From Macrostomum lignano (taxonomy: Eukaryota), in the NCBI GenBank assembly GCA_002269645.1, contig NIVC01004149.1, positions 1-57,899 of the forward strand: a DNA stretch of 57,899 bases, read 5' to 3'. The notes under the pieces were generated by a model that saw only the letters and a list, made by a program, of their open reading frames with translations, searched no databases and was not told where the DNA came from. Below, piece by piece: positions 17,897-54,718 of the stretch (within the stretch, counting starts at the first letter, position 1; the number at the start of each line of letters is the position of its first letter). The position numbers were made by a program, and so were the translations under genes.

Positions 17897-18297
17897 TAAT
17901 CCACTGACATCCACCCATAGCATATTCGAAACAATAAGAAAATAATCTGCATTCTTCTCGATCAAACAATGAGCGTCATAGACAATTCCAAAGTTTGCGA
18001 TTCGCTCCAACTCAGTGCTCCCATTCGATACACTAAACTCCTTGAACATGTACGCCCAAAAGTTACTGATCAGAGCCACATCCGCATCATGCTTGTCAAC
18101 GTTAGCACGAGCCGCATCCGCACCACCCTTTGTCTTGAATTGAAATGTCATATGGAAGCCGCTCTTAAGACTGTGCACACTAACCAAAGACGAACATCCA
18201 TTGTATGTAAATGTCAGTGTTTGACCAGGACCAAGATTAGTTTCATTCTGATTTTCCTGACTGGGAACTCTTACCTGAGTCGCTTTGATTGTGCTAT
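17897..18297 (-). pseudogene. Polinton relic: TIR-internal fragment fused to a major capsid gene fragment
   Basis: 17897-17959 resembles the TIR interior (~19360-19420, ~28580-28630). 17955-18297 is nearly identical to the MCP segment 21540-21882. The junction shares TTCTC. Confidence 0.9.
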
Positions 18298-18979
18298 TGT
18301 AACGTTTGGTTGTCTCTGGGTTGTCTCGAGGTGGCCTGGCAGGTCTTTGTATCCCACCGCTGCCACCAGTGTAACGTTTGCCCTTTGCTTCGGTCCTATA
18401 GATTTGCCTGAAAATGACCCTAAAACGTTAGCCTTGACTTGGTAGGGTTGCTGCCACCTTGGTGTGCGGACTCGACGTGTCGGCAGAGTTGTCTATCCAT
18501 CACCTGAAATAAAATTAACGAAGACACTCGGAGCAAAGGCCAAATCTGAAAATGTCTCGACAGTCGATCGTCTTAGTTGAATGCTGCTCGGACCTGAAAA
18601 CCTGTAAAACCTGAAATGAGAGAGGAGAGCTCGGAGGCAGAGGCTTCACGAGTTAGCCACAATGCTCCGCGAGACGACGCAGTCTACGAACACGGTCTGG
18701 AGAAAATTGGCTCGCAGATGCTCCGTATTTATAGACGAGCAGACCCCCAAAAGTCACGTGAGTTTCATGCGGTGAGCGCGTGAAACTTCCTTATTTGGGC
18801 ATTAAAATCATGCGAACGACGCGTGATTCAAGGATAACTTCCAAATAAGGCAATCCTGTCACGCATCAGTGGCGTGACTCAAGGTCAGTGGCCGCGCACA
18901 GCATGCGTGCACAGTCACGTGCTTTTCTGTGCTAAAAATAGAACTTGGGCGGATGAGTCATCCTGTTTACTACCTCTGG
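18298..18979 (-). mobile_element. Possible truncated LTR (or promoter fragment) on the minus strand
   Basis: Minus strand ends ...AAACGTTACA, a typical LTR end. It has a TATA box and upstream enhancer motifs, and abuts the Polinton relic and the Polinton A terminus. No second LTR is seen. Confidence 0.4.
18726..18960 (-). promoter_or_regulatory. Pol II promoter/enhancer motif cluster: TATA, 2 CArG, 2 E-box, 2 AP-1, MEF2, GC box
   Basis: TATAAATA (minus) 18726-33; CACGTG 18755 and 18916; CCTTATTTGG 18789; CCAAATAAGG 18841; TGACTCA 18875; CTAAAAATAG 18932; GGGCGG 18947; TGAGTCA 18954. Confidence 0.6.
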
Positions 18980-19758
18980 AGTAGAAGGCATGAGGGGGCT
19001 TCTGGGACAAAATTTTTCACCTCCTCCATAATCCACCTAAATCCATCCATATTATCCCTGACAGAATCAGAAAAAAAGGGGGGTCGCACTCGCTAACAAA
19101 ACGTCCTCCATAATCCACCTAAATCCTTCCATATTATCCCTGACAGAATAAGAAAAAAAAGGGGGGTCGCACCCGCTCACAAAACGTCCTCCATAATCCC
19201 ATTAAATCCATCCATATTATCCCCGAAAGAATCATGAAAAAGGGGAGGGGCCGCACTTGCTCCGAAAACTTTAATCCCATTAAATCCATCCATATTATGA
19301 CTGACAGAATATGGGAATATGGGTCCACTGATACCTGTTATGCTCACTGACACAGACATAATCCACTGACATCCATCCATAGCATCTTCGAAACAATCAG
19401 AAAAAAATATGCATTCTTCTCCCCACATTCAATTCGCAACATGAAACCAGATCCCTAAAACTTTAAACCCCCTAACCCAGGGTCCTTACCCTTTGAAAAA
19501 AAAATTAAATTTTCTCTAAAAATGTTTCCAGTTGTCTCTCCAGGTTCTTATTACAAAGCGCACGAGCCTAATTACAAGAGTAAGTACCGATGCAAACTAG
19601 AATGCAGCGAGTACATGAGAAAATATTGGCCCGACGTTGATATCAATGTCCCTAATATTAATCTAGCTCTCCAAAGACACTGGTTTCATAAGTATGGAGT
19701 AACCTACGTAAAAGATTACGACAGCTACTATAACTTTGCAGAAATCATTAGGCAATTG
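18980..19758 (+). repeat. Left terminal inverted repeat of Polinton A (~780 bp) with internal ~82-bp tandem units
   Basis: Reverse complement of 43432-44183. CCTCCATAATCC recurs at 19023, 19105 and 19188. Confidence 0.88.
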
Positions 19759-19761
19759 TGA
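19522..19761 (+). CDS. Small TIR-embedded ORF (79 aa), function unknown
   Basis: Open in both left TIRs (also 28729-28968) despite nucleotide divergence, and present in the right TIR. It has an A-rich ATG context. Confidence 0.6.
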   Translation: MFPVVSPGSYYKAHEPNYKSKYRCKLECSEYMRKYWPDVDINVPNINLALQRHWFHKYGVTYVKDYDSYYNFAEIIRQL

Positions 19762-19765
19762 TTTC

Positions 19766-20629
19766 TCACATTCTCTCAATGATTAACGTCAATACAAACT
19801 CTTCCCCATTAAAATCAACGCCCATCCCATCTTCAGTCTCAAACTGAAGCACAATCTCGTGAATCTCCTTATTACTCAATACAACTCTTTTCACTGGATT
19901 TGGTTTCTCTACCACCATCTGTCCTCCAGCTACAGAGTTGGAGATGTTGTACAAAATATTAGTTCGCTTTCCCTTAAATACCCAATCAAGACTGAGATTA
20001 GTTCTGATTAGAATATTCAAACCCTTTACAATGTCTGCTATATTGGGTGCTAAGAACAAACCGCGTACACTTTCCCGGGCCATGCTAACGGCCCCCGATG
20101 CTTGAGTGACAGTCCGCGCTGTGGATTCTGCCTTATAAACTTTCTTCACGAATCCCAATTCCCTATACCAAGTGTCATCTTTAAACTCAACCTCCGCATC
20201 TTTGTGAACTTGCATGACCACTCTCATTACAGTGAGATCATAGGTTAGTTTAACAGGGAACAGTTTCTTCTCTGGCTTACTCATATCAGGTGTCTCAAAA
20301 TGGCCTCTTTTAGTAAAGACGTTTTCTAGAAAGTAATTGTAGGTATCCACACTTTGCGTGCTCACAGGGAATACCACAGGTTCTGCTGCTGCACCTTTCC
20401 ATTTGTAATAAAACTTATTATTTGCTGCCGTCACATTGGGAACGTTTGACCAACCAGTGAAGTCGTTAAGATAGACATGGTAATTAGCACCTGGATCCAG
20501 GCTAATCGCCTGCTCTAATTTTTGAACAAATATCCCGTTTGAGTCATTAATCCGCCCAGTTATTGTAATAGGAATGCTCTCCTTGGAGTGCGAAATAATA
20601 TTGTTTAGTCTTTCGGCTATAGCTTCCAT
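19766..20629 (-). CDS. Polinton minor capsid (penton-like, single jelly-roll) protein
   Basis: ~287-aa beta-rich ORF next to the MCP, with a C-terminal ...IVLQFETEDGMGVDFNGEEFVLTLII typical of Polinton minor capsids. The ATG is at 20629 (the track used a non-ATG start). Confidence 0.7.
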   Translation of the reverse strand: MEAIAERLNNIISHSKESIPITITGRINDSNGIFVQKLEQAISLDPGANYHVYLNDFTGWSNVPNVTAANNKFYYKWKGAAAEPVVFPVSTQSVDTYNYFLENVFTKRGHFETPDMSKPEKKLFPVKLTYDLTVMRVVMQVHKDAEVEFKDDTWYRELGFVKKVYKAESTARTVTQASGAVSMARESVRGLFLAPNIADIVKGLNILIRTNLSLDWVFKGKRTNILYNISNSVAGGQMVVEKPNPVKRVVLSNKEIHEIVLQFETEDGMGVDFNGEEFVLTLIIERM

Positions 20630-20654
20630 TTTTTTCACCCACAAAAAAAAATAT

Positions 20655-21940
20655 TTAAACTTTACTGGATGAATTGTTGATCATGTTAAGCTTCACCTTC
20701 CTCTCAAATGCATAGATAATGTACAGGTCCACGGGTGTTGCGACAGTCCTCTCAATGTTAGTCACGATATTCACAGGGCTGTTATCAGTAGGCATTTGTC
20801 TGGCAGACACATCAGCGCCAAACATTGGATATAGAGTTCCATATTGAAGAGCAGTGATAGCAATTCCATTGTTCTCTTTCACAGCCAAGTCGACCAACTC
20901 GCTGTAAAATTTGCTAATCTTGTTCTGACTGAAATCTCCATTTTGTGGCAGTGCAGGGTAAAGATTATCACTGATTTCATGCTGAATGGACCGCACGTCT
21001 CCATGCATGTAGCGTATAATGCTATTTGGGTTTCTCATGTTAATAATAATATACCGTGGATTGCTGCATGATCCCTCTTTAATGCAGATGTTTGTTCTAG
21101 TTTCGTTTCGCTCATCTCGACACATGTAGGCCGTGTATGCAACATCAATGTCCTTCTCTATTGCCTTAAGATAATCCGCTTTTAGTGCAGTCTTTGGCTC
21201 AATGACTTCCAAATACAGCTCGATTCCGGTTAGCTTCACCTCCATCCTTGTGTGATCCGCCCCAGTCCACAACACTCTACTGCGATCATCTCTAGTCATC
21301 CTAAAGGTGTAGCTAAAGTTACTAGTCAGTCGATTAAATGTATTACAGAATCCACTCATGAATCTCAGTGGTACAAATACATCAACAGACCGATACAGCG
21401 GGTTTTTAGCAGCATCATCAGCACCTTGCAATGCATAGTTGTATCTCTTCTTCCTCTTTTTATAGCCACTGTCATTGTGTCTCCTTCTTTTTCATCTGCG
21501 ATAAAACCCGCACCACTTCCCAACTGAATAAAATCAGGATTCTCGATCAAACAATGAGCGTCATAGACAATTCCAAAGTTGGCGATTCGCTCCAACTCAG
21601 TGCTCCCATTCGATACACTAAACTCCTTGAACATGTACGCCCAAAAGTTACTGATCAGAGCCACATCCGCATCATGCTTGTCAACGTTAGCACGAGCCGC
21701 ATCCGCACCACCCTTTGTCTTGAATTGAAATGTCATATGGAAGCCGCTCTTAAGACTGTGCACACTAACCAAAGACGAACATCCATTGTATGTAAATGTC
21801 AGTGTTTGGCCAGGACCAAGATTAGTTTCATTCTGATTTTCCTGACTGGGAACTCTTACCTGAGTCGCTTTGATTGTGCTATCATCACTCAAAATAGGCT
21901 TGTTAATTTTGTAGAAAACTGGTGTCAGTGGGTCGTTCAT
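20655..21940 (-). CDS. Polinton major capsid protein (double jelly-roll), one 1-nt frameshift near 21477
   Basis: The two ORFs join into ~428 aa; copy B is continuous across this site. Beta-rich, with VFVPLRFMSGFC, KLTGIELYL and YPMFGADVS segments. Size and position fit an MCP. Confidence 0.75.
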
Positions 21941-21970
21941 TTTTTAACTAAAAATAAAATAAAATAAGAA

Positions 21971-23184
21971 ATGAAGCGAAAAAGTACACAGCAGATATCT
22001 GAATTGGAGAAGCTAGCACAAGCAGAGAAACGAGTTACCGGGCTAATAAATAAGGAGCAACAATCCTACAATGAGTTTGTCCAAGCAGCCACAGAGTTTC
22101 ATAAGCCCGGGTATGGAGAAGCTAAGAAAAATATTGATCAGGTCAAAGAAACTATCGACGACATACAGGAAACCCAAGTGCAAAAGGTTTTGGGCAAAAT
22201 TCCAGAAGCACCACAGATACAGCCGCAACCACAACAACCACAACCACAACAGCAACTAAAAGTGACAGATAACATTTTTGGACCAGTAGAGCGTGTCGAA
22301 CATGATGGGAAATATGTATTTGGAATAAGTATGTGGAGAAAAAACATTTATAATGAACCAGTGGAATATTATATCGACATAAATAAGGAAAATATTTCTG
22401 TTGTCAAAGGCTAGAAGCTATGAAAATTCCTTTCACAGACGCCTTACTGACTTTTATGACCAAGAACCAAGAGAGAATCTCGGACAAGCAGCTAAAGAAC
22501 TACAGAGATCTAGTGACTTTTGCTCTTGCTAGAGATATAGAAATACTAAAGGCCCCAGAAGTCCTGAGACTTATGTATGATAACGGTGTCAACCTGACTA
22601 AATTCAAAAAGTACAAGCACTTTAAACAATGGTTTGGTTTGCCAGATCAGGGGGAAGTCATTGATCAGATGAAATATCTAGAACAACAGCAACAGCAACC
22701 ACAACAACAACAACGACCGCCACAACAGCAGCAACATTTCACAGAAGAACAAGTACTCAGTCAACTCGAGCAGTTAGACCCTTTGAAAGTAGCTGAATAT
22801 AAGAAACAAAACCCAACAGACTGGCAACGCTTAGAACAACACTCTCCAGATCGAATGAACAGAATCAATCAAAGAGTTTTCACACCTCAACAAAGACAGG
22901 CACCACATGACAGTTCCATCTCTGAAAGTGAGCAGTCTTTTGCATCACCTCCCCAGCAGCTACAAGCCCAACCAACTCCACAACCCCAAGACCAACCGCC
23001 CTCAACTGGAAAAGGAATTTCTGAAATCTACAAGCGAGTAGCGGTTCTTCTAGGAGCGGCAAAGACCGGAATGAAAGATGAAAATAGAAAAGAATTTGTC
23101 AACATCCTCAATAAAATGCTTGAGAGAAAATACATCGATAAGAGGGCGAGAGAGCTTCTGCTTTCGCGGTTCAACAAAAAATAA
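21971..23184 (+). CDS. Gln-rich Polinton protein (~404 aa), split by a 1-nt frameshift near 22410
   Basis: Copy B reads through here (GTCAAAGGTTTAGAAGCT versus GTCAAAGGCTAGAAGCT). The C-terminal helical domain is RVAVLLGAAKTG...EFVNILNKMLERKYI. Confidence 0.7.
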
Positions 23185-23201
23185 ATATCTATTTAAAAAA
23201 G

Positions 23202-23591
23202 ATGCCAATTATTTTCGAAAAAGACATTGACAAATACTATGACAAAGAGGAACTTAATCTTATTAAACGCGGATCTGGACTTTTCCCTGCAGGCCACTAT
23301 CCAAGAAAAGAGCGCTCCGGGAATGGCCTTGCCGATTTGATCGCTCAGGGGGCTAAGATTTTTAAGGTCATTGGAGAGAACAAAGAGAACATCAAGAACG
23401 TTGCCGAAGCGGCTGGCAGTGTAGCCACAGCAGCCAAAAAGATAAAGGATACTGTAACACCTAAACAAGAGATTCAACCTCCACTGGCCCCGCTGGCCCC
23501 GCTGGCCCCAAACCCAGACAGTGTGGACCCTGCAGTCTATGAGAAGATGAGAGCAAGCATTAAAAAAGGAAGTGGTTTCAAATTTGACTGA
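23202..23591 (+). CDS. Small basic/amphipathic putative virion protein with repeated G-x-G motifs
   Basis: 129-aa ORF conserved in copy B, with KRGSGL, RSGNGL and KKGSGF motifs and an amphipathic helix. Confidence 0.6.
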   Translation: MPIIFEKDIDKYYDKEELNLIKRGSGLFPAGHYPRKERSGNGLADLIAQGAKIFKVIGENKENIKNVAEAAGSVATAAKKIKDTVTPKQEIQPPLAPLAPLAPNPDSVDPAVYEKMRASIKKGSGFKFD

Positions 23592-23640
23592 GGGTACTTT
23601 CCGAGGGTACAAGAAATGTAAAGGTACAAGACTAGTCTCA

Positions 23641-23820
23641 AAATGACACATCTAAGTCCCAAAATGACACATCTAAGTCCCAAAATGACACATCTAAGTC
23701 CCAAAATGACACATCTAAGTCCCAAAATAACACATCCAAGTCCCAAAATGACACATCTAAGTCCCAAAATGACACATCTAAGTCCCAAAATGACACATCT
23801 AAGTCCCGAAATGACACATC
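23641..23820. repeat. 21-bp VNTR (AAATGACACATCTAAGTCCCA), about 8 copies
   Basis: Direct tandem repeat; about 4 copies at the matching site in copy B. Confidence 0.95.
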
Positions 23821-23861
23821 TACATTATTTATTATTTAAATTTTTTTTCATCATAGAAAAA

Positions 23862-24662
23862 ATGGACTTTTCAAACGACTTCAATCCTCACTGGACACGT
23901 AATCAGATTAAGTTTTCTCATCATGAGTCAATCCCAAGTCACTTCAGATGCATTGTTGTTGGTTCATCAGGTTCAGGTAAAACATTCAGAGTCTTTAACA
24001 TGCTTCTTAGACCTGGCTTTATCGACTATGACACTCTGCACATCTACTCTCCCACACTGTATCAAGATGAGTATAAAATGCTGATTTCTGGATTGCAAAA
24101 CAAACTGAACAAAGAGGACATTATTCAATGTTTTAATAACCAGCAAATCCTTCCCAGTAACCCTGAAATTGTAGCTGCCGAATATGCAAAGCACCTCAAA
24201 GACAATGAAAAATGGCAGAACATTAAAGTGTTCACCTATGGAGATCCACAGGCTGATCCAAAGACCAAACTTCTACCCCAACCAGATGAGCTAGAAAAGG
24301 GGAGAAAGCATTTGATCGTCTTTGATGATTGTATGACAGGCCCACAGAAGCAGATAGAAAACTATTTTACAAGAGGGCGACATAACAATTGTAATGTAAT
24401 TTACATTGCACAGAACTGGTTCGAGCTCCCGAACAAAACAATTCGTGGGAACTGCAATCTGATTCTCCTGTTTCCAACCATTCCACAGGACAGGTTAAAA
24501 AGATTTTACAATGAGGTCATTGCGCCTGCCTATTTCATAAATCCAACAAAAAACTCAAGCAGAAAGATTTCACAAGAGGAATTCGTTAATCTTTGCTATG
24601 ACAAGTGGAATCAGCCTTACCAGTTTGTGATTATCAGCAAAGAAAAAAGAACTGTAATTTAA
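23862..24662 (+). CDS. A32/FtsK-like genome packaging ATPase
   Basis: Walker A GSSGSGKT, Walker B LIVFDDC, and the FTRGRHNNCNVIYIAQ motif (A32-type R-H and Q). The likely start is ATG 23862 (MDFSNDF). Confidence 0.93.
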   Translation: MDFSNDFNPHWTRNQIKFSHHESIPSHFRCIVVGSSGSGKTFRVFNMLLRPGFIDYDTLHIYSPTLYQDEYKMLISGLQNKLNKEDIIQCFNNQQILPSNPEIVAAEYAKHLKDNEKWQNIKVFTYGDPQADPKTKLLPQPDELEKGRKHLIVFDDCMTGPQKQIENYFTRGRHNNCNVIYIAQNWFELPNKTIRGNCNLILLFPTIPQDRLKRFYNEVIAPAYFINPTKNSSRKISQEEFVNLCYDKWNQPYQFVIISKEKRTVI

Positions 24663-24678
24663 AATTTGCTATTAAAAG

Positions 24679-35722: not shown

Positions 35723-38700
35723 CTAAACCCAATATCCACCTCCTAAACCTAACCTCCAATGCCCGAACGGTAGACTGTTGATATTGTCATCAAAAATGAA
35801 TCTCTTGTTATCTGCACCTGACAGTCCAATCTTCTTTTGCTGAATTGTGTGAATAATATGGTTTTTAGATTGTAGCTTTGAGAACTCATGTGATGTCTTT
35901 TTGTTGCAATTCAAGGCGTCTCTGTATTCAGCTTCATTAATTTCCTTCCTAACACACGTTTCGGAATTCCCTTTGATTTTTTATTGGGTCTGACGACTCA
36001 CATTTTATAAAATAGGACTTTGCTCTCAACCCAATGAATTCAGTGATTATGTCACCAGCAATCTCGTCCTTCATTTTCCCAATCACTTTCTTGTTAGTGG
36101 CGTCAAACACTTGATCGCCATTCTGTGTCCTGAAAGATTCATCATACTCAGACAAGTCAAACAAATCTTTTTGCTGCAGCATGTCCTGATAAATGTCTTC
36201 TGTTTGAATGTCCATAATAAAACTGTCTGTGTCAGTGTACAAGAGTTTCATTTTATCCTTGTACTGCTGCTTCATGCCATAGAAGAACTGGTACATCAGA
36301 CGTTTTGATTCGTCGAGAACAGTGACACCTGTATAGATCGGCTTGCGCAGCGTCACCTTGGTTTTGTAAAATATGATCACACCTAAGTAGCTATTAAAGA
36401 TATGGAGTTCTTTGAATGTTGGCTTTGACATATTTGCCTGAATAACATCAGGCTCTGATGAGGTAACAAGTTTCAGGTTTGTTCTTTTCCGCTCATTCTC
36501 AAGAGTCTTGCCATAGACAGAGTTGTTGGCCAACTTAAAGAGGTTCTTGTCAAAGTCGTTGGTTGCTTTGGTCCTAAACTGGGTGTTCTTATCAATGTAG
36601 GGTTTCATCCACGCTTCCTCTGTAAATGTAAGAGCCCGGTGAACTTGGTGACCCTGCAACCAAGTGAGATAAAATACTGAAGCAGTTTGTAATGGATTTT
36701 GTAACGTGTCTTGTTGTTTAGATTCTGTGTTAGTTTCTCTGTATGTTCTTTTTCTGTTCCTGACAGGTGCCAAGTTCCATTATTATCATTGGGAGTTTCG
36801 ATTATTTTCGGGCACTTGATGTTCTCTGGGAAGGGTGGAAAGTCAGAGAAATAGTCGTGAAGCTCTGGTGGAATGTAAACATCAACCTCATAAATGGCAG
36901 CCAATGAAAAGTCCCGTTTGAATTCTGATGAGGGTAGCCATCGAAAATCTCTAACTGGAAGATCTTGACTCATCGCCCACCCGTAGAGATTATTAGCGTC
37001 CAAGTAAGTAATGTAGTTTGAGGGCTGCTCCTTATTGTAAGATTCAATGTAGGGATTGTTTGCTTTTGCATACTATGTGCAAATTGAGATTCCCCCTCGC
37101 TTTGACGATTCGACAAAATTGTACATGTCAATGTCTGTAAGAAGTTCAATGTACCAATCTGGATCTTGATCCCATTTCATTTTAAGCAAAGATTCCCAGC
37201 TAGTGGCAGGCAGAGACACATAATGTGCTGGATCGAGGCCATATGCTGTGTACCAGGTGATCTGAAGGTTTCAAACACATCGGCCAGCAGAAACACATCT
37301 GTGTAGAGGTAAAGCAGGTGATACTGGAAGAAGTTTTGACAATTAAAGTAATTATAGACATGCTTCGCGTGCTCATAGTCTTTGTCAGAGATTCCAGAGT
37401 CTGTTAGCTTTGAAAAGAACTTCTTGTGGTGGTAAACCTTCTTCAAATACGTGATACCCAGTAATATTTTCATAGGGGTAGAAGCCTTTGGTTCTCAGGA
37501 GTTTAAATGATTCATCAGTGTTGTTAATTTTACTTGCAAACATCTTTGTATATGTACATTGTTCATCTTTTAGATTCTTGCTTAGTTCGTCTAGACTGGC
37601 AGCTAGAAATTGATATGAATCCTTCAGTCTTATTTTACCTTACCCGAATTATCCTGTTTAATATCAACACACTTAAACTTCTCCTTGTTCTCTGCGATGC
37701 AATCAAGGTGTATGTCTGGAATCATGCCGATTTTTTCAACTATTAAATGCATGTCATAGTTCTTTGCGTTGTGACAAAATATCGTTAGATCATGAATGTT
37801 CGATTTTAGCTTTAGATTACAGGTGTTATGCGCTGCACCTCTAAATTTCCCAGTAAGTGGCAGTGGTCCCTAACGGTGGGGTTTTTAATATTAGTGCAAG
37901 TTAAATGTTTCCTGCAGATGTGGCAATGAGTTGCTGATAGGAAATTGCTTTCATCCTCCTCAGTCATCATTATTGGAACAGGTTGAAGGGTGCTAATCAT
38001 TTTTGCAACTCTAACATTCTGGCAATAAACTGCTCCACACACTGCTCTCCAAAGAAATAATTATACTCAACAAGTCCTTTTGTATTAATAAAGGCATATG
38101 CTACTGAATTGGGGACATGTTTTTGAGTTTGAGTTTGTTTTTGAGTTGGAGTTTGTTTTTGAGTTGGAGTTTGTTTTGAGTTTCTGGCACGATTGAGCAT
38201 TCGAAATCAGCATATACAACAAATGGGAGCTTCTCCATCTTGTGATAGTTCTTAAACCGGAGATACTTCTCTTCAGCTGAAGGAAGAGAGCAGTTTGTCG
38301 GGTGATCCTCGCATGATAATTCATGCTCTGCTAGTTTTTCAAAGCGTTCAGGTCCACTGTAATGCTTAAGGCACAAGCGGCAGATGGCAACAGCCTCGTG
38401 ATGATTATTCAACTGCTTGTGAATGAGTCTTGAAAGATCTTTAATCCAAACATAGTGAGCCTCCTCTAGTAAATTACCAATCACTAGAAGATCCACTTCA
38501 GTCCGCCTTTTCCCCTCGGATCTAAAACGTCTTTGCTACATCTGACCGGTTGAACTTTCTCAGTTTTTCACTCCACTCAAAGACTGTGATTCTAATTTTG
38601 TTATTAAACACTTCTTCTAGCTTTGGGATCTGAGAGATCGCCAAGCCTCCTTTGTCAAACCTGATTCCCTTCTTTTCGCATTCATGAGATAGTAGTTGAA

Positions 38701-39588
38701 ATAATTTTGATAATTTGAGGTTCTTTCGGGGTGGTGAGGGACACTAAAAAGTGCAGAAAGAACTGCCCATAGAGCACAGCAATTGTCTTTATTTTTAACA
38801 TTTATGCAAGCTTTTTTACCGGCTAGCTTATGCGGGAGCTCTATATAAGAGGAGGCTTTAAGTGGGTCATATTTCATGACCATGACAGTCGCTCTTTGAA
38901 TCCCTCCCACGACCCATCCGGAACCTCTGGATGTAAACGCTTCAATTTTCTTATTGACATCTTGAAGGAAAGGATCCAGTGTGTCTGTTGGGGTGAATGG
39001 CTTTGCCTTTGTTGTCATGTAATACTCGAGATGCTCAGTGGGTTTTGCAGGCATATAAAACGCAATCTTGAATGATATCTGTAGTTTAAAGGTCTTGCGT
39101 GTTTTGAGTGTGTGATCAACAACTGATTGGATGCTGTCTTTATAGTCGTAGATGTTTGCGGTGGTACCGTTGGTGCCGTTAATTGGGATTGTGTACTCTA
39201 TGTAATGTTCTGTAAACTTCCTCTGTGCAAAATTAATCTCTTCAGTGGCAAGCTCCGACTCTTTTAAATGGATTAATTGCTCTAATTTCTCTTGTTCCTG
39301 CTTATTTTGTGGGTACTTTGCTTTTTCACCAGTGAGAGTTTCATATTTGTTAACTAAGTTGCGACTCCTCTCTTGGTGTTCCTTTGCAGAATTTTTTATA
39401 GGCGCATACTGGTTTGATTCTAATTGATTGATGATTTCCAACTGTTTTTCATAGCTTCCCAGGTGACCAGGGTCGGTGTTGAACTTTTGTTTGCATGCTT
39501 CTCTTAGTGAATTACTTTTGTCTTGAAATGAGACGCCTTTTGAAAAATATTTGTTGACTAAATCTCTTGCTGGATTAGCTTTTGGCAT
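35723..39588 (-). CDS. Full-length protein-primed DNA polymerase B, broken by multiple 1-nt indels
   Basis: N-terminal GSGWVVGGI...YDPLKASSYIELP...INVKNKDNCCALW, HYVWIKDLSRL, CRLCL zinc motif, VYADFE exonuclease I, endonuclease VII-like CHIC...RDHCH, and polymerase motifs DANNLYG, NSVYGK, YTDTDS. Confidence 0.93.
38120..38185. repeat. 18-bp in-frame tandem repeat inside polB (TQKQTP x3-4)
   Basis: GTTTTTGAGTTGGAGTTT units. Confidence 0.85.
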
Positions 39589-39709
39589 TTTTCTCGAAAA
39601 TATAAAAAAATTTTGAGGGTGACCACCCTGATAGAAAAGTTGAACTGTTTCTACATCCTATAAGTAGTTTAGGTTTATGAAGCTGGATAAAGTGGGGTTT
39701 TAAACCTCA

Positions 39710-40155
39710 TCACATCCGCATTATTGTAAACCCAGCATTGTGCAGTGTCATGATGGCTTTGACAATGTCAGACTTGCTTACAGAATTTTCATGCTCACAA
39801 TCATCACGATCGGGGCAGCCCTCTCCTGCCTTAATTGTTATACCTTTGTCTCTTGCAATCTTTTGCAATTCCAGCTGGTGGGCTCTATCATTCCCAGCTT
39901 TAACAGCAGTTGCTACACCTCCAGCTACACCACCTGCGGCACTTACAGCGCCTGCAATGATCGGAATAAGAGCTGCTAATGGTAGGATTCCTCCTGACTT
40001 TTCATCTGTGATGCTGTGTCTTTGTCATTACACTGAACTATTTGCTGCGTGGGATCGATTTTTACTTTGACACCTTTAATTGATATAATACCTGGTTTCT
40101 TTGATTCAATGATTTTATTGAGTTTATTGATGGTTCTGGTTTCAATCTTTGTCAT
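39710..40155 (-). CDS. Adenovirus protein X (mu precursor)-like core protein, one frameshift near 40020
   Basis: Manual translation: MTKIETRTINKLNKII...(fs)...TDEKSGG|ILPLAALIPIIAGAVSAAGGVAGGVATAVKAGND..., like the pX C-terminal MRGG|ILPLLIPLIAAAIGA. Absent from the supplied track in this frame. Confidence 0.65.
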
Positions 40156-40171
40156 TTTTTATTTTAATATT

Positions 40172-41198
40172 TTAATTAATTTCTGTGTCAGCTGGTATCA
40201 CTAGGAGTTCAGCTCTAGTGAATGACCGCGTGGGGGATTTAGGGTTAAAGGCCTGAGATAAAAAGTAATAGTCACCGGAGTCGGAGGTAAAATGTCTGTC
40301 TATTTTATGTACATCAAGGCTGAAGTATGGATCTGTAGCTCTTCTTTTGGTGTCTTTCTCTAGCTCTCCAGGTAGATATAAAAAGCGTAGAAACTCAGAG
40401 TTTGTCAGTATGTATGGTGATTCAACTCCTGGAAGCTTAGGGTAGTTCGAGGTGTGTTTTGTGTTGTGTGTGTTGTGTGGGGTTGTCGTGTTGTTGTCTG
40501 TTCTATGAGATGCCTTAAGTTCGACAGTGTCTTGTTTAATTGCATGGGATGGTTTCAATCCAGTCATGCGTGTGACTTCATTGTTCAGTTGCTCTATAAC
40601 AGTGGGGAGTCTCTGTCCACTTGGTATAGTACTGCCACTCAGTTTCAGTCTTGCGCTGTCTGCTTAGTGAATAGCCTCTTGGCTAGAGTTAGATTGAATC
40701 TTTCCACAAAAGCCTGGTCTCTGTGCAAGTTTGTTCTGCCATAGCGAATCTCTGTGTTTTTCTTTTCCATAAGGGATTTCACTACACCCATGAATTCCTT
40801 ACCCGGGTCGGTCATAAAGATTTGGGGTATGTGAGCGGAGAGTTTTTATAAATATCTTGCAGTGCGCTGGCAACAACCTCTGACTTCTTCGTCTTGAGTG
40901 GGCGAGCTTCCTTATATCTGGAAGCAATGTCAATAATTGTAAGAGCATACTTGTAGCCTGAGTCGTTGGGGAGAAACAAAAGATCTGCTTGGTGCGCTTC
41001 ATTAGGTTTATAAATACTGAAATGGGCCTTTCAAATTTTACTGGTGGGAAATAGACTTGAAAGACAGCCTGCTTAGAGAGCCATTTTTCTACTGTAGCTT
41101 TTGGCTCTTACTCAGCTCCATGAGTTTACTAACGCATTTTTGCCTACAAAGAATCCTTTGTCGCTGTAGTAGAGTTTTTTAAGTTTCTGATCTGTCAT
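40172..41198 (-). CDS. Retroviral-like (rve, DDE) integrase, frameshifted
   Basis: Manual translation: KLYYSDKG...HQADLLFLPNDSGYKYALTIIDIASRYKEARPL...TDPGKEF...HRDQAFVERFNLTL, plus a C-terminal RSFTRAELLVIP. Confidence 0.9.
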
Positions 41199-41227
41199 TT
41201 ATTTAAAAAGAAAATTTAAATAAAATA

Positions 41228-41676
41228 ATGCAGCGCTCTGGTGGTAAAATAGATTCACATGGACTGATAGAAAAGCTTCCTCATCCAAACAAAGGCTGGA
41301 CACTTCCCGGCTATAAATATTGCGGGCCTTTGAATCCACTTGAAATACAGTTAGATAAAAACAATAATCCAAATCCTGGGCATGAGCCTGTGAATGAGCT
41401 AGACTCTGTCTGCATGTGGCATGACGTTAAATATAGAGATTTTCCTGAGGAGAAGAATCGCTGGGACAAAGAAATGCTTAGGAGACTAGACAATATAGGG
41501 GCTTCAAGCGGTGGAAGGAATCGATCGCTCGGAAGCTAGTTAAAGCTGTTATTTTTAGTAAGGCAAAGTTGGGATTGGGAATGGACGTCGAGGGTGGGGT
41601 GGGTTTTGCATTGCACGCGCCAAGCAAAGAATTAGGAAGACTGCTGAAAGAGCTGGGGGTTGAGAGAGCAGAATGA
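41228..41676 (+). CDS. Parvovirus-type phospholipase A2 domain protein (PLA2X-like), frameshifted near 41500
   Basis: WTLPGYKYCGP Ca-binding loop and PVNELDSVCMWHDVKY with the catalytic HD dyad. It continues ...KAKLGLGMDVEGGVGF...ERAE* in another frame. Confidence 0.85.
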
Positions 41677-41955
41677 TTCAAGTGGCTCTAGCGGTTGGAA
41701 AGAAAGCTTGTAAAGGGCGGCTATATTTTCCTTATGACATTTTGCCGTGTGGTGGGGGTGTTGAGCGGAACGGATATGGCAGCTGTTTATTGTCAACCAT
41801 TATCCTATACTCAATGTGCCGCAGATACTGCAGTATTCAATGTGAAAAGTATTCAATGTGAAAAGCAGCAGATACTGCAGTATTCAGTGTGAAAAGTTTT
41901 TTATGTGAAAAAGCAAGAGTCATAGCAGCAAGAATCATTAGTCACAGCAGATTAG

Positions 41956-42591
41956 TTAACCCAGGAGTGCACTGGCCTCTTCTTCTTCTAGCATCTTCAA
42001 TGCCTCATCGGCATACTTAATTATTGAGCGCAGTCGATACAGCGAGATGCCACAACGATTTAGAATAGGGCGAGTGTTGCTGAGTCTTGCCACCCGGATT
42101 AAGAAATTCCCCCAAACCGGCTTAAATCGAAGCTTCATGGCAAACGCTCTATATTCCTCAGCAGACAGTACGAGCTTCATGCGGATCAGAATTTTTCCAG
42201 CCTTTATTCCGTATTGAAGTCCTTGATTTTGTAGTTCATTTATCATTTTTTCAATTTTGTTGAGCTCATTCACAACTTCTGCAATGTCGTGCCTCCCAGA
42301 GACAAATTCCACAGCCGGTTGTGGAATGACACGAGCAAGTGAATCACGGAGTAAGTTCGCAGCCTCATTGATGTGCTCCAACTTCTTTCGTTCGTCAATT
42401 CCTTCCACCCTACCAGTGATAGATGGTAGATTAATCACACACTTATTGAATCGCCTCGCAACTTTGTTAAATTCCTCAATCCAATACTTCGATTGCTTCA
42501 TGTCATCACTCTCGCACATCCTCCTTACTAAAGCAACCAAATCATCCTCAAATGTAGGCATTGCTATGTCCATTGAAATTCTAAAACACAT
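41956..42591 (-). CDS. Hypothetical helical Polinton protein (~205-211 aa)
   Basis: Intact ORF inside element B, convergent with the PLA2 gene. No motif recognised with certainty. Confidence 0.6.
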   Translation of the reverse strand: MCFRISMDIAMPTFEDDLVALVRRMCESDDMKQSKYWIEEFNKVARRFNKCVINLPSITGRVEGIDERKKLEHINEAANLLRDSLARVIPQPAVEFVSGRHDIAEVVNELNKIEKMINELQNQGLQYGIKAGKILIRMKLVLSAEEYRAFAMKLRFKPVWGNFLIRVARLSNTRPILNRCGISLYRLRSIIKYADEALKMLEEEEASALLG

Positions 42592-43272
42592 TGTAGGTGA
42601 AGTAAATGAAAAAAAAGCAGAACTAGTATAAGCAAATATATTAATAATTATTACCTTGCAGATTTAAAAAATATTTAGCGCGTATATGGATACTGAATCG
42701 GGAATCAGTAGTTCTTTAGTAGGTAGAGCTCTGCTCAATACTAAGCTCTACTCTAAGATATGGCTCTAAGAATTTTTCTCAGTGCATTATACAATAGATA
42801 CAGTAGCTTCCGCGCGATCGACACTGACACGGTAACGTTGTTATCCCTGGGCGGCAAATGTGGCAGCAGCTGGTGGAACCGGTTAAAGACACAATACGCT
42901 CTCGTATACCCAGTAAGTATAAATCTATATTAACCCTGGAAGAACTCTGCCCTATACGATTTGCTGTACACGAAATGAGCGGGAGGAAAATCTATAGTTT
43001 ACAACTCCAAGTCCAAGAGGCAAGGCCGTTCTAGCTTCTATTGTGCTACAATTGAGGCACTGGCAAGCAAGAGAGGGAGAGAGGGACGGGACGGAAGCCA
43101 TGGACGGGACGGGGCTGCTAGAGTCTGGCAAGCGGGCAGAATTATAGGGCTATTGCCATATACAATTTGCTGTACACAAAATGAGCGGGAGGAAAATCAA
43201 TATTCTTCTGGATCCGAATAATATCGATTTTGGATTGTGCGAGGATCTACAATATCTTGTTCTTCCTCTACC

Positions 43273-43667
43273 CTATTCATTTCCAACCGTGCAACTAGCT
43301 CGCACGTCGCGGAGGAAATTCTCGGGCGGATAGCCCTGCACACTCAGTGTCTGCTCTTTCCTCCTTATTTCCTCCTGTTTTATGTAAATATACTTGTGAA
43401 TAAATGAACTTAGTATGTTTTTAGTAAACTTCAACTGCCTAATGATTTCTACAAAGTTATAGTAGCTATCGTAATCTTTTACGTAGGTTACTCCATACTT
43501 ATGAAACCAATGTCTTTGGAGAGCTTGATTAATATTAGGGACGATGATATCAACGCCGGGCCAATATTTTCTCATGTACTCGCTGCATTCCTTCTTGCAT
43601 CGGTACTTACTCTTGTAATTAGGCTCGTGCGCTTTGTAATAAGAACCGGAGAGACAACTGGAAACAT
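43273..43667 (-). CDS. Right-TIR copy of the small ORF, extended past the TIR boundary (frameshifted near its start)
   Basis: ATG TTT CCA at 43667. It shares MRKYWP...EIIRQL, then continues ~52 aa into unique sequence. Confidence 0.5.
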
Positions 43668-44183
43668 TTTTAGAGAAAATTTAATTTTTTTTTTCAAAGG
43701 GTAAGGACCCTGGGTTAGGGGATTCAAAGTCTTTGGGATGCGTAGCGAATTGCGAATTGAATGTGTGGAGAAGAATACAGATTGTTTTCTGATTGTTTCG
43801 AAGATGCTATGGGTGGATGTCAGTGGATTATGTAGGACACCTGCTATGCTCTGATTCTGTCGTGGAGGAAGGAGGATAGGTTAGGAGGATTATGTTCGAA
43901 GTTTTGTAAGCGAGTGCGACACCTGTTATGCTCTGATTCAGGGATAATATGGATGGATTTAATGGGATTATGTTCGAAGTTTTCGGAGCAACTAGGACAC
44001 CTGTTATGCTCTGATTCTGTCAGGGATAATATGGATGGATTTAATGGGATTATGGAGGATGTTTTGTGAGCGAGTGCGACCCCCCTTTTTTTCTGATTCT
44101 GTCGGGGATAATATGGATGGATTTAGGTGGATTATGGAGGAGGTGAAAAATTTTGTCCCAGAAGCCCCCTCATGCCTTCTACT
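43432..44183 (-). repeat. Right TIR of the Polinton locus (~750 bp)
   Basis: Ends GAAGCCCCCTCATGCCTTCTACT, the inverse of the termini at 18980 and 28280. Confidence 0.9.
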
Positions 44184-44329
44184 AGCTTATGCTGTATAGA
44201 GAGAAATGGAGACTTTTTTTAAGAAAATTTTTCGTTTGATTTCAATGGAGCCTTAAAAAAGTGGAATTCCCTCAGTCCTCCGGTTTTTTACCATAGACAC
44301 CTTGTTTAAGAGCTGCCACGACTCATGGC

Positions 44330-45749
44330 CACGAAGTGGCACCGATTTGAATTCAATTAGATTTCTTAGATTTCATTTCCCATCGATCAAAGACAAGTGG
44401 CAAGTGGAAAAAATCATAAAAGTGCTAATTTCCACTTGATAGCGATGTCACTGGCAGAAAGAAAGAAAGCCAGCTGTCCAAGCGTTATTTGAAGCATGAT
44501 GCGGTGCCAACTATCTTTCCTAATGCACCAAATTACCTACTACTGTCCAGCAGGCAGCTCAGAGCACATGCACTGCGACATAATCTGCTCGTCTGAAGGC
44601 TGAAAACATGCGTCTCGATGATCAGATTGCTAACTTTCTTTACTATTGATTCAATTCTAATTGCTCGTTCAGAGAAATTCAAGAACTGCTCGATTCAGAG
44701 GAAGCGAGACCAGGGTGGCTTTCCCACTGCAATATGCAACGAGTTCCTGTGCATCTTCATGCTGGAAGTGAATTGCATGTCTGCCAGGTTGCGTGCTCCA
44801 TCTGCATTGGACCCGATCGCAACGTACGGATCTCCTTTGGTTTAAAAGGCGCGGCACTGTTTGCAAGACACGGTGATAGAATTGCTTGGCACAGATAGAA
44901 ACATTTCTGAGCAGTTGAGCAGTAAGCCAAAGAGCTCCAGGAGATCCTTTCGAAAGCTGATGGTCTTGTGCTACATGATCTATTCAGTAAGTGCTGCAGC
45001 CTACGGACTTCTACGTGAACAATCTCGGCTGCCATCAGAGAGAACTCTGCTATCAATCACTCGGAGAATTGAAAAGGATGGATTAGATTATCAGAGTTAA
45101 CTTCGGTTGCGAGCGTCCAACAAGTCGACACAGATGGAGCGAGTTGTGATGCTAATCATTGATAAGATCTATGGGGCCAATCGAATTGAGAATTGAGCTC
45201 CGACTGCACGGTTATTTACTATACAAGCGGAGCAGTCGCTAGGAAGTTCGTGCAAAGAAAGCGAGGATGCGGATCTTCCCGCGACCTTCTGCTTGGCTCT
45301 GACGATCTGCCGCCCCTTCATGAGGTGGGATTGGTGGTGGGACTGACTGATGGTGGGATTGAGGCCACAGCCATTGCCTTCTTGGAGGAGATCAACCGCG
45401 GTGGCCTGTCCAAGCCGTCTGATATCGCTTTTGGGCTGGCCAGACACGTTGGCAGGTGTTCTAGGAGATCTGGCAGAGCGATGAACTGCGCAGACGGCTG
45501 CTGCATTCTCCCAATCAGATGCAGCTGTTCTGTCACTTTATTGACGAGATGATGGATGAAAACTACTATCTGGAACATTTCATGGGTCAGACGATGTGCA
45601 TGGAGTGTCATGATGCGAAAGAAGGACTCGTCTGTGCATTTTTCAACTTTATGATGAAAAATCTTGTCAAAGACATTTCGGTTGGTGGAGCTGGGGCTCG
45701 AAATAAGCGAATGTCGGCTAAACTTTCTAGTGCTAGCTCAAATAAGTAA
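44330..45749 (+). pseudogene. Decayed, internally deleted P-element/THAP9-like transposase
   Basis: THAP end LKHDAVPTIFPNAPNYL (44489), SAAAYGLLREQSRLPSERTL, VMLIIDKIY, then C-terminal YYTSGAVARK...INRGGLSKPS. The catalytic core is missing and there are many stops. Boundaries are approximate. Confidence 0.75.
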
Positions 45750-47289
45750 CTTCGATTTGTGTCAATGACAAAGTAACTTCTGTCTGAGATCCCAACTGCT
45801 CCGACAAATCTAACCTGCTCGCTTCCGTTTTGTGTACACTCCTTTGCCTGCTCTACATGTGCGTTATCATTTTATACTCGTTTTTTGTTTTAATTTGAAT
45901 TCTTTGAATAAAAACACTAGCCAAAAAATATTCCGTCGCTTCATTTTTGAGTTTGACAGATTCCGCAGAAAACAGAGAAAAAAGTCATAAAAATCAATAA
46001 GAAAAACTGGCCTCATGAGACAACGGGTATTTCTTCGCTTCCACTCCAGATGCTAATTATAGAACTCCTTGCCTGAGAAAATCGTCCGAGGGCTTTCAAC
46101 CATAAAACGATTTTCTTATCGCGTGTGAAAAAAATTTACCCCAGTAAACTGATACATCTTTTCATTGAGGGTTTTAACCACAGACAAAATGTCAGCGATG
46201 AGAGACCTATCCGACTTGGTATAACCAGCAGATAGTCCAGGCCAGATCGGAGTGGTTACCAGCAGAGTAAACAGGGAACAGTCTAAAGTTGATGTAGTAT
46301 TTCAAAATGCCTGGGCAGACAGAGTGTAATTTAGCCTATCAATATTGTGATGGGTTTCGGCCTTTTCGGCTCCTTTGTGGAAGCCTTCGGACCTCAGGTC
46401 TCTTAAATGAATCCATTAGAATCCTGGCCCTCCACTCCTGTCAGATGGTCAGCCCCACGGTAGCTTGATCTGTGGCGAGCAGTCTAGGTCCTATAGCTAA
46501 GAGAGGGACAGCGAGAGACAAGCAGGGAGAATTTTAAAGGTAGAGATTAGCCAGTCCGCAGATTAACTAAGCCGCTGCCACCAGCCCGTGCGTTCTGGCT
46601 CACCAAACCGGAACTTTCGAAATCGGGCTTCCGACTAGAGGGGGCTTAGCACTTACCTGCCAACTATTGTCTTTTTGCTGTCAATCTCGAAGTCATAGCC
46701 GATGATAAGGGACACTGCTGGGACTAGATCGCATTGGCCATGCAGGTATAGAGGGGACTTGTGCAGGGCATTCTTGCAGTGGCGAGACTATGGGGTAGCT
46801 ACATGTACTATTACATTGCTAAATACGAGGAATTGTACTTTTGGCCTTCAACGCACCAACCAGCCTCTCGTAGCGCTGATGATAGACTAACTCGAACTTC
46901 AGAGACCGCATGATTCATTTACCCGAGCCGCTTGGCGAACCTAGAGTGCACAAAGTACATCTCTGGCGCCGATTTTGCACTATTGGCAATTTTCTAACTG
47001 GTTTGATAGATTGATCGACTGAGAACTGCCTTGCCATTGGTCCACTGTGACTGGCGCCTACTAGCTTAGCTACTCATCTGAGCCATCGGCGAACAAAGAA
47101 ATAAAACTGATAAAAATAACTGTCAGATTTAACCTTCTCACTAAATCCCTTCACACTTCAGATTGAATTGGAGTATCAGACTACTATTAGTATTATTATT
47201 AAGTGATTTCTGCCTCAATAACAGCACCGCTGAACAAAATGAGTAAAAGCGTCGCCTAATCCAGCTACTGAAATAGGGGACAGATAAGG

Positions 47290-47755
47290 AATCACCCAAT
47301 CAAGCAAGCCTAGGTAGCCTCTCACCCAACCAATCAGAAACTCAACAGCCGGAGACCAGGTAATCCACAGTGACCGAATCGGCTTAGTGCTTCGCAGCTG
47401 TAGGCCCGGGTATGATGCTGATGTCACAATCTTCGCAGATAGCTAGCAGGTGATGATCTTAACTTTGATGTTCGCTGCTGACGACCGGGGGAATTCGTCC
47501 TTGATGGTGACGGGGGAAGTTGCGATCCGGGGATCAAGAGAAGACGGTCGAGCTCCGGGAGGTCTAAGTTAGGCCAAGGTCCCAGGAGGTTGAGGTCCGA
47601 GCGGGCCAAAAACACCGGTTTAAATAGCCGCCAACTGGACTGCAATTTGTTATAATGGAACACCTCCACGCTGATTGGCTGAGCCGATTTGTTATAACTG
47701 ACGTCGAATTTTCTGATTGGCTGAGCTTGTTGCCACCCAAACTCACGTGACCAGA
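47290..47755 (-). promoter_or_regulatory. CCAAT-rich promoter-like cluster
   Basis: CTGATTGGCT twice (~47672, ~47714), CCAATC twice (~47297, ~47331), TGACGTC (~47699), TCACGTGA (~47743), and a TATTTAAA-like box on the minus strand (~47620). No downstream CDS was identified. Confidence 0.35.
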
Positions 47756-50419
47756 AGATCCTATCAGTTCTCTCGGGCGATAAAAATACGCCAGGTGCAG
47801 TCACAAATCCCTCAAAATTGCTACATAATGATTTATGACCTTTCGCGTAGGAATGACAAAAATTAATAAAAAAATATACATTAGAAAGGTCTTATTAAGT
47901 AGAAAACGAAGAGGGTGAAGAGAATTCACTAATCGCTAATCCCAAAGTACTTTTAGGGGTAAAACGCATAGCTGTCAGAACTGTCAAACGCTTTAGTGAA
48001 CACGAACAATGGGCCTGACCTCATAAATCTGATGGCCTGTCAAAATGATGAGAAAAAAGCTACCGCCCGCATCCTCTCAGACCATCTGGCGCCAGCCTCA
48101 GCATTGAGTGAGGCGCAGGTGGCTGTCAGACCAGCTCAAAAGCAATGATTTATGATCCTAAAAGCAACAAAAAACCGCGCCTAATGTTATTATAACTACA
48201 AGTATGGCAGATTCATATGGCTACAAAAGTCCTACTAGTATGAATTCTAAAAAAATTACAAAAAATCAGAAAAATGCCCATAGCCTGCTGTTAGTAGGCT
48301 AGCCAGTTTGGAGCCCATGTGCGAGCGTGAAATTTGGAAAAAAGTGCGTCCTCATCAATTGAACAATTTACCGTAAATTTTTATCTTGCTTCGAAAGGAA
48401 GCTTAATTTGCTCTTGGTTTTACGTACATGTAGCGGTAGTTCGCTGCCACTACTGACGCGAGAATTCGCGGGAAAGTAATCCAGTCCGACTCAAGTATAC
48501 ATGTACATGTATTTAGAACCAGCTAATTAATATTATGAAAGCTTTTTTAGTTAAAATCTCTTATAGGATCTCATTGATACTGCACTGAATTAAGAGTCAC
48601 GAACAGGTCTAAGAACAAAATTTTTCCAGAAATGAATAATGCGCTTGTTTCGCGAACAATGTCAGAACGTAACTACATGTATATTTTCCACGTAAGCGGA
48701 TAATTTTACCCAATCAGTCGAGTTTTATTTAATAAAATCTACAAAATAAAAGTTACATTTTAATTGTAATTTGTTATTTAACAACGGACAGGCTGCTATT
48801 AAAACTTTCATGTTTAATAGCCGTTACGTATGTAATTCATCATTACGTACATCAATTTCTCAAATTTGTCCAACGCGATCCCAATCCTAGATGATCGAGG
48901 CCCCTCTCCCTCCTGATGACTTATCGGATGAATCATCGACGCTAAGCCCCCCACTCCTCCCCCATCTCAACCTCTGCTCTTTGGGTTCTGAATCCTGCAT
49001 TGCGGAATTCAAACGCACCAAATGAAATTCTCTTCCTGCAATTAATCCATTTTACCATGTCCTAGTCATATGCTTTTACTTATAGAGCTACTGAATTGAG
49101 CTACGATAAGGAAAAGTTTATCTTCCACCTTGACCAAGTTGCTGTGTGCGGCGGAGGCTAATTACCCCTTCTTAACTATCGTGCTGCATGCAGCTGGACA
49201 CAGTTGTTCACGTTTTTGTGTCTATAAATACATGTTGGTAAGAGTTTTAAGGCTTAAAATTGACCTACATGTAAATGTTTGATTGATGTTCAGTTGCCAT
49301 ATGATAAGTTTGATTTTTTTATCTGCTACGGTCGAAGGGCGTTTTCTTATTGAGGGCTAATTATTTTTGGAACAGCAATTTTCGCAATTTCGTTTCAGCC
49401 AATTATCTGCTTGATAATGGTCAATGCAGACTGAAACGCGTTGCTTTAGAAAATGAAATAAAATGTTGATTTTGAGCCTTCGATCTTTTTCTATCACTAC
49501 TCAAGCGAAATTAAGTTCCAAATATGTTAACGATAACGGGAATGGTCATTACATGCATGCGCGCACATATGTGGAGTAGACCATTTGAGTGCCCCAAGTT
49601 GACTGCCACTATTTGACCGCCAAGAGTTTGCCTCGATTTTGATCTTCCTAAAGAGAGTGGTTTAGCATGTATTATGCGCCCGGCCTCTCCAACTCTTGCA
49701 TCTTACTCTTTTATTCTCCCACCTTCAAATTAAGCTATGAGGGAGCTTTGGGCTTTTTTATACGACTCTTTGGGGGCTACTGATGCAATCAGGATGCCTT
49801 ACTCGTACATCCCTTTTGATAGTAACAGCTCCTACTGGGAAAATCAGAGAAAGCCGCACAGAGCTGCCAGCAGCACACAGAGCTTGCAGGCGATTCAGCC
49901 TCTGACCTCTCTGCGTCAAATCCACATTTTAATATTCTCGGTTGCTGCATGAGAATATGCTTTTAGGGCATATAATTTAGTCGGGTTTTCTGTGACAACA
50001 CTCATTCGGAGGCGGTCTAGTAACAAGTCTCTCGTTTGAGGAAACTGCGATTACCTGACGCTGATGGGACGGGACGGGACGGGCAGTCTTCAGCAGGAGA
50101 CTTTGAGTAGGGTGGGCTAGTGCACTAGAGAACTTTCTGGGGAAAAATACATACAGCACTGCAGGAGCAGCAGATTGAGTCAGTTTTCGAGCTCCTGGAC
50201 GTGAGTCCGTCTGCAACGATTCAAACGATGATGATGATCACTTTTCTCTTGTCTCAACCAACGCAGACTACGCAGACTATATTTGATTGGAGCCACCCCG
50301 TTGTGAAGGAGCGGCGAGATGAGTTCACACAGTGGATGTTGAACGAAAGACACAATTATGTATAAATAATCAGCGGTCCCAGTGCGTTACAACAATTTTT
50401 TTGACTCGCGCCTACCGGC

Positions 50420-50545
50420 GCTTGCATTCTAGAGTGACAAGAATTTGTGATCTTGACAGCAACGGTGCCACTGTGCATGACATCATGCACGTGTCAGGAC
50501 ACAAGTCCGAGTCCACCGTACAACGCTATCTGCATACAAGGCGTG
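50420..50545 (+). pseudogene. Tyrosine recombinase (Crypton-like) C-terminal catalytic fragment
   Basis: RLHSRVTRICDLDSNGATVHDIMHVSGHKSESTVQRYL: H-x-x-R-like box, GH motif and catalytic Tyr. Confidence 0.65.
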
Positions 50546-53754: not shown

Positions 53755-53835
53755 CAAAAAAGCGTGCAGATAATGAAAAAAGCGTGCAGATAATGAAAAA
53801 AGCGTGCAGATAATGAAAAAGCGTGCAGATAATAG
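53755..53835. repeat. 20-bp tandem repeat AAAAAGCGTGCAGATAATGA x4
   Basis: Direct reading; one similar copy near 54550. Confidence 0.9.
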
Positions 53836-53929
53836 CTTACAGCGCCACAAAAAACAGCAGTTTGCAAGCAACGTTTATTAAAACAAAGGGGAAAAACACA
53901 GCAGAATTTAACAAAGAAAAGACGCCCAC

Positions 53930-54452: not shown

Positions 54453-54645
54453 ATGGGGCCAAACTCACGATCAGAAGCTTGTGCATAGCAAGAAATTGTC
54501 TATGGTCACTAAGAAAATGTCTATGGTAGGAACTCCTAGCTGCAGGAACAAAAAACGTGCAGATAATAAAGTACAGTGCTGTGACGAAGAATTTTTTCAA
54601 CGCACGCTCAGTCATGAGACAATATGCCTACTACTAGGCTTACTC

Positions 54646-54707: not shown

Positions 54708-54718
54708 TCGAAAGCCTA

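Follow-up and report, generated by a model that had tools for sequence, protein, structure and literature searches.

We analysed a 57,899-nucleotide stretch of Macrostomum lignano DNA (the window), which is the whole of contig NIVC01004149.1 (C4149), and found in it parts of several Polinton/Maverick copies, among them an outer copy A and an inner copy B. The window belongs to a 764-Mb assembly of 5269 contigs, and the other contigs named below (C5061 and so on) come from the same assembly. The evidence leaves us nearly certain that B inserted into A, in a real nested insertion with a 6-bp duplication at both ends. For the window as a whole, the account that we hold to be probable is that B entered the protein-primed polymerase gene (polB) of A with a six-base duplication, likely through integrase, and that the right end of the window comes from a different copy, F, which was likely joined on by the assembler.

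B inside the polB gene of A

A terminus starting with AGTAG begins at position 18980 and again at 28280, and an inverted terminus finishes at 44183. The polB of A reads ...CATATGCTGTGTA as far as 28279, the last base ahead of the B terminus, halting at ...GCTGTGTA, which immediately abuts that terminus. At the equivalent site B's own polB is uninterrupted (GTGTA/CCAGG, 37252). The two polB readings bear out the original prediction that the terminus of B lies exactly inside A's gene at 28279/28280 and that B's own gene runs on near 37252.

The remainder of this structure was found in C5061. Read on its minus strand, this contig contains in order the end of A's polB, the whole of B (26369 to 9217, 17,153 bp, with TGTGTA flanking both ends), the remaining A polB, A's right arm, its terminal inverted repeat (TIR) and CTCTGG, which is A's own target duplication. 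Both right-hand junctions, that between the end of B and polB and that at the right end of A, are read again in C3589. The two halves of A's polB overlap on B's intact gene by exactly six bases (37247-37252); the N-terminal half, in C5061, matched PF03175 above cut-off, and the C-terminal half carries the polymerase motifs. Furthermore, the paired TIRs of A and those of B are identical or nearly so (Table 1). Both termini, a target duplication and continuous host sequence were thus found for B in C5061, as they were for a second inner element, E, in C1684, described below. Together, the two junctions of B, the TGTGTA on either side and the continuation of A's polB and right arm indicate that B inserted into A.

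In addition, we compared A with B. With indels included, identity was 95.1% across 6150 bp and 96.9% across 2577 bp, and the block at 25228-25728 did not align; substitutions alone separate the two by 1.3-1.7%. The differences are clustered in the TIR, in a 21-bp repeat that opens the ATPase frame (9.0 versus 4.0 units) and at the end of a coiled-coil open reading frame (ORF), a putative fibre gene in the original prediction, so that the copies are near-identical and yet differ in blocks, as had been predicted.

It had also been proposed that the junction could stem from head-to-tail replication, as a defective product in which the morphogenesis (capsid) module is doubled, and a pure assembly artefact is a further possibility. 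Taken alone, the window would permit this, as it shows neither a matching duplication nor A's right arm. The hexamers at its three termini are CTCTGG, TGTGTA and AGCTTA, and the outer flanks match neither one another nor the junction hexamer, so that no element within the window has a target duplication. However, in both C5061 and C3589 B is followed by the right arm of A, and the 6-bp duplication is clean, which refutes the head-to-tail product. A chance match of hexamers (about 1 in 4096) would not also restore the continuity of a gene, and the substitutions between A and B mean that no single template was copied twice. We regard this class of explanation as scarcely credible.

The prediction of an integrase-type self-insertion, by comparison, was supported, since B has both junctions with the 6-bp duplication. 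A duplication of this length is a mark of the rve integrase (PMC12220804), and in C5061 A and B each gave a match above cut-off to PF00665, the rve integrase. From the duplication and the rve gene we infer that the family's retroviral-type integrase probably carried out the insertion.

Several points limit this account or weigh against it. C4149, C5061 and C3589 are contigs of one assembly and not independent samples, and the junction evidence includes no long read. Public contigs contributed little. In run X1, a 73-base contig at depth 94.9 spans the left junction with 44 + 29 letters, a point in favour of the nest, but it is two letters below the 31-letter bar, and X1 is perhaps the assembly's own sample. 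Among the pieces listed, no bridging piece was found for the left junction in three of four runs, or for the right junction (C5061:9216) in four runs, which weighs neither way. Finally, B's left TIR as read in C5061 has 20 substitutions and 15 indels relative to the right TIR, compared with one difference in the window reading, indicating that consensus quality is uneven inside TIRs.

The right end of the window

The original prediction treated 18980-44183 as one compound locus. This did not stand, because the last 2.9 kb and the right flank come from another insertion. The 415 bp beyond 44185 are identical (100%) to C1811, which holds a solo copy, F, at 385714 to 369550 with AGCTTA on each side; the empty site for F is present in C35. 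At all 152 sites that distinguish C1811 from the empty allele C35 the right flank of the window is of the C1811 type, with 44 private differences. Beyond 41598 we found no match between the window and the right arm of B as read in C5061. This arm includes about 2.8 kb (C5061:10001-12790) that are missing from A and from the window and that hold internal repeats and a tRNA-like small repeat.

The painting of single-nucleotide polymorphisms against other genomic copies, which had been suggested as a check, was run on the window with B (C5061) and F, and showed that the window carries B alleles between 28280 and about 41.3 kb, with F alleles afterwards. When the painting was refined to sites at which two readings of B concur, B-type alleles stood at 33 of the 40 before 41300 (7 F alleles) and F-type alleles at 20 of the 24 after it (4 B alleles). 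The two kinds of allele are interleaved over 2.3 kb, from 39221 to 41509. Since A's missing arm is intact elsewhere and the right end of the window duplicates C1811, the lopsided shape of the locus is likely an assembly join, and we hold it very probable that the misjoined end is a join of B to F. The contig builder would have departed from B near 41.3 kb, where the sequence is 98-99% identical, and exited along the end and flank of F. For the same reasons, the recombination that the original prediction placed after the insertion was probably not a biological event.

The nest could also be real and the window a real recombinant chromosome, in which the left part of the nest became linked to the flank of F when B and F crossed over ectopically at about 41.3 kb. 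Such a crossover would yield an identical end swap, and the switch does lie within long near-identical sequence; large elements at high copy number are held to risk ectopic recombination (PMC8097293), and a perfect duplication is missing in 11 of 42 convergent terminus pairs. Against it, the assembly contains each of the parental structures in full (C5061 and C1811), no reciprocal product was present among the flanks read, and the many allele alternations over 2.3 kb are as expected from a consensus of mixed reads. Assembler error at Polintons is also indicated by C716, in which an identical flank stands on either side of the Polinton. Overall, we consider a real crossover unlikely and retain the assembly join.

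Swapped or duplicated Polinton ends were found elsewhere in the assembly as well, in C2715/C3721, C4346/C924, C716 and C1604, the last being a direct duplication of a Polinton end with its flank. The ends in C716, C1604, C2715 and C4346 are likely assembly errors like that of the window. Lopsided compound Polintons in draft assemblies can therefore be end swaps, which a check of target duplications across contigs resolves. In C2715 (17560-19241), an 82-bp repeat array within one TIR has grown to about 20 units.

Two candidate readings were rejected. A mismatch between TIRs was not accepted as proof of a chimera, because E combines unlike TIRs and an intact duplication. Nor were the window's frameshifts in the main accepted as decay, because 1-bp indels vary between contigs that read one and the same copy.

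Layers of insertion and identity of the family

The nest of B in A lies within older insertions, giving four layers altogether: B in A, A in a solo long terminal repeat (LTR)-like repeat, and this repeat in a diverged copy, C, with a truncated left arm. The remnant of C matches A at 19359-19421 and 21540-21882 and finishes with CTAT, the four bases duplicated when the LTR-like repeat inserted, and C's capsid gene picks up at the matching base in C5061:1559 and C3589:74613 (the LTR-in-C region of C3589 is 63581-74866). As hexamer pairs across contigs can coincide by chance (C27 also ends in CTCTGG, with a different flank), the CTCTGG pair of A was verified through continuity of the flank. We found that 14 of 14 other copies of the 930-bp repeat are unbroken across A's insertion site and continue into the 248 bp found in C5061 just beyond the right end of A.

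These data suggest the following steps. A solo-LTR-like repeat broke the capsid gene of C with a 4-bp duplication; its junctions were observed, and its LTR origin is probable. A lies in this repeat with the duplication CTCTGG, and B, which may have entered A either before or after A reached the chromosome, lies in A's polB, in the same orientation, with the duplication TGTGTA, splitting the gene.

Upstream of C, at window positions 1-17670, a 22-bp satellite (758 units with 99% matches) gives way to degenerate repeats and 12.7 units of TTAGGG. It may be that the nest is located in heterochromatin close to a chromosome end. The TTAGGG repeats, like a ligand-gated ion channel gene in the right flank, suggest an animal genome.

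The family is a Polinton/Maverick by the criteria of PMC8097293. Its genes comprise the protein-primed polB, the rve integrase, an A32 packaging ATPase (PF04665) and a C5 cysteine protease (PF00770), the latter two above cut-off, together with PLA2-like and pX-like ORFs; its TIRs are 690-750 bp long with AG...CT ends. The major capsid gene was tested on the unbroken frame of copy F. PF21738 was found in 48 of 51 aligned proteins, and the model of the capsid (pLDDT 90.9) matched the Sputnik capsid structure with an E value of 1.8e-16, the fold also matching the capsids of iridovirus, PBCV-1 and mavirus. The capsid alignment, searched by sequence against solved structures, returned no match. For the 287-aa ORF beside the capsid gene there was no Pfam match, and its neighbours in the Atlas were unnamed viral clusters (score 0.98).

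The elements resemble the animal Polintons described in PMC8097293 in their long TIRs, 6-bp duplications, polB, rve, ATPase, protease and double jelly-roll capsid genes and in their length of 15-17 kb. They differ in the end motif, which is AGTAGA here and (AG)3 or (AGT)2 in vertebrate Polintons, and in that one copy is the target of another, a case that does not appear in the available portion of that paper. With the Alpha adintoviruses (PMC8502044) they share integrase and capsid genes and two domains, a PLA2 domain of parvovirus type and one resembling adenovirus pX. In those viruses PLA2 and pX are fused as PLA2X, whereas here PF08398 and PF05829 match separate ORFs on opposite strands, and we therefore did not file the family as Alpha adintovirus.

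Frequency of Polinton insertions into Polintons

A second complete nest was found, in which E (C1684:3567-19325) lies in the protease gene of a copy D with the duplication GAGGAA; D's own target duplication is CAACAA, and further regions of this nest are C2829:75562-83152, with D's left end, and C2806:3725-12773. The left and right TIRs of E are about 15% apart, each end being read alike in two contigs, and those of D differ by one substitution in 740 bp. Unlike TIRs are found in other copies too: in 6 of 19 copies with intact duplications, the TIRs are less than 96% alike. Age does not explain those of E, since E cannot predate D if it inserted into D. A genome that was recombinant at integration, or a later conversion, would explain them, hinting at recombination between variants.

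We then took a census of termini. The 26-base terminus has 189 exact occurrences, and 546 at no more than two mismatches. Flanks were read for 189 termini (182 of the 189 exact ones plus 7 variants) and gave 163 distinct junctions, corresponding to 81-106 insertions. Among 42 convergent terminus pairs on one contig, 31 had a perfect 6-bp duplication, and two of the other 11 were off by one base. Eighteen flanks matched the element library, and eight of these rows are the two insertions straight into Polinton genes, polB (TGTGTA) and protease (GAGGAA). The remaining rows were seven matches to a small repeat, two at the LTR-in-C site and one 106-bp filler from the capsid gene, at C217; the last three were left out of the nest count. 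The seven were candidate nests, their termini abutting or neighbouring the tRNA-like small repeat of B's right arm, and were dropped as a probable host repeat. At C217:253294-253406 the terminus is preceded by 106 bp identical to the capsid gene, with no 6-bp duplication and with about 23 bp of flank repeated on both sides, which looks like a repaired, non-canonical integration.

Base counts of the flanks were only mildly biased, chiefly towards T or A at position -9. The elements are likely loose in their choice of target, and a family of 80-270 copies that probably cluster in repeat-rich regions would be expected to produce occasional nests. Under uniform targeting, the exact terminus class gives 0.07-0.24 expected nests and a probability of 0.002-0.024 for two or more, so that on this narrow count two nests exceed chance, a point against regarding them as ordinary insertions. 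When all 273 related copies (546 termini) were taken as full-length targets, 0.46-0.61 nests were expected, with a probability of 0.08-0.12. Moreover, the window was chosen by a scan for holding one nest, leaving only one event free of selection, and the chance of one further nest is 0.07-0.46 (a hand calculation from the expected means). Given the generous count and the scan-chosen event, self-targeting is not shown (P 0.002 to 0.12 depending on target size).

These figures bear on a more far-reaching explanation, in which variants replicate together outside the chromosome as free genomes, recombine and integrate into one another far above chance, the resulting 33-kb composites then entering the chromosome as units. 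The nests would in that case be footprints of viral replication centres in the germ line. Consistent with this, there are two independent nests, each in a young host with near-identical TIRs and each in its host's orientation, and the TIRs of E have diverged though those of its host match. On the other side, beyond the counts above, the two target sites are unrelated and lie in different genes, and neither nest junction occurs at a second locus among the flanks read. In 13 oversized copies, we found no inner terminus at up to four mismatches in 20 bases; they carry other inserts or repeat expansions, which suggests that Polinton copies are common targets in general. We therefore regard favoured self-insertion as unlikely, and the germ-line interpretation as equally so, and keep to the ordinary insertion of B, likely by integrase. 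If self-insertion and mixed TIRs were frequent, they would provide indirect evidence for the free-replicating stage of animal Polintons, which according to PMC8097293 has yet to be observed directly.

Nesting of transposons in general is ordinary, and so is the mechanism by which B entered A. More than a third of coding copies of Mutator-like elements (MULEs) carry nested insertions (PMC3903597). Casposons integrate in tandem at their own site (PMC10359463) and resemble the present case as self-synthesising transposons that land beside themselves; their target site is fixed, whereas the two Polinton nests are at unrelated sites in coding genes. Large integrated viral elements frequently bear insertions of other mobile elements, and retrotransposons are nested in Polinton-like viruses, virophages and insect polintons (PMC12220804, PMC8547959 and bioRxiv 10.1101/2025.02.07.637071). 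Copy C, with its solo LTR, is similar, but the nested element B is of the same Polinton family. We found no published case of a Polinton in a Polinton in a search that left subscription papers and supplements outside, and this absence is a weak sign of novelty; the literature search on these elements in flatworms returned only unrelated work. The present data thus provide two clear examples of one Polinton lying within another of its kind, and a young family in an animal with 81-106 recent insertions.

Table 1. Features of the window, by position
Feature	Position	Strand	Basis
Remnant left part of third copy C	17897..18297	+	63-bp TIR fragment fused to major capsid gene piece
Left 682 bp of 930-bp solo LTR-like repeat (TG...CA)	18298..18979	+	last six bases CTCTGG
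Left TIR of A, with 83-bp repeat array	18980..19729	+	no difference from the right TIR of A (C5061) in 750 bp
287-aa ORF, candidate minor capsid protein	19766..20629	-	position only
Major capsid gene of A (double jelly-roll), read here in two frames	20655..21940	-	tests on F's capsid gene
A32-like packaging ATPase of A	23643..24662	+	PF04665 above cut-off
Adenovirus-type C5 protease of A	26310..26711	-	PF00770 above cut-off
C-terminal half of A's polB, cut at the junction	26744..28279	-	polymerase motifs in translation
TGTGTA, target duplication of B	28274-28279		hexamer flanks B at either end in C5061
Left 13 kb of inner element B	28280..41283	+	B-type at nearly all diagnostic sites versus C5061
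Left TIR of B	28280-28966		1 difference in 687 bp to B's right TIR
Intact polB site of B	37247-37252		within B's left 13 kb
Capsid module and pX-like ORF of B	within B's left 13 kb		Pfam
Interleaved B/F allele zone, likely assembly join	39221..41509		main switch between 41283 and 41338
Integrase region of B	about 40160-41200	-	Pfam
PLA2-like ORF of B	from 41207		Pfam
Right end of different copy F	41338..44183	+	5 substitutions in 2855 bp to F
Flank of F's locus, opening with F's target duplication AGCTTA	44184..57899	+	matches C1811 to contig end

Two further features were seen in the right flank. An intronless 399-aa ORF at 51339-52538 contains the ligand-gated ion channel domains PF02931 and PF02932. 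At 54717-56660, an IS630/Tc1-like DDE transposase ORF (55133-56356) is flanked by 159-bp inverted repeats, and this element sits within a further one bounded by 86-bp inverted repeats (53563-56794).

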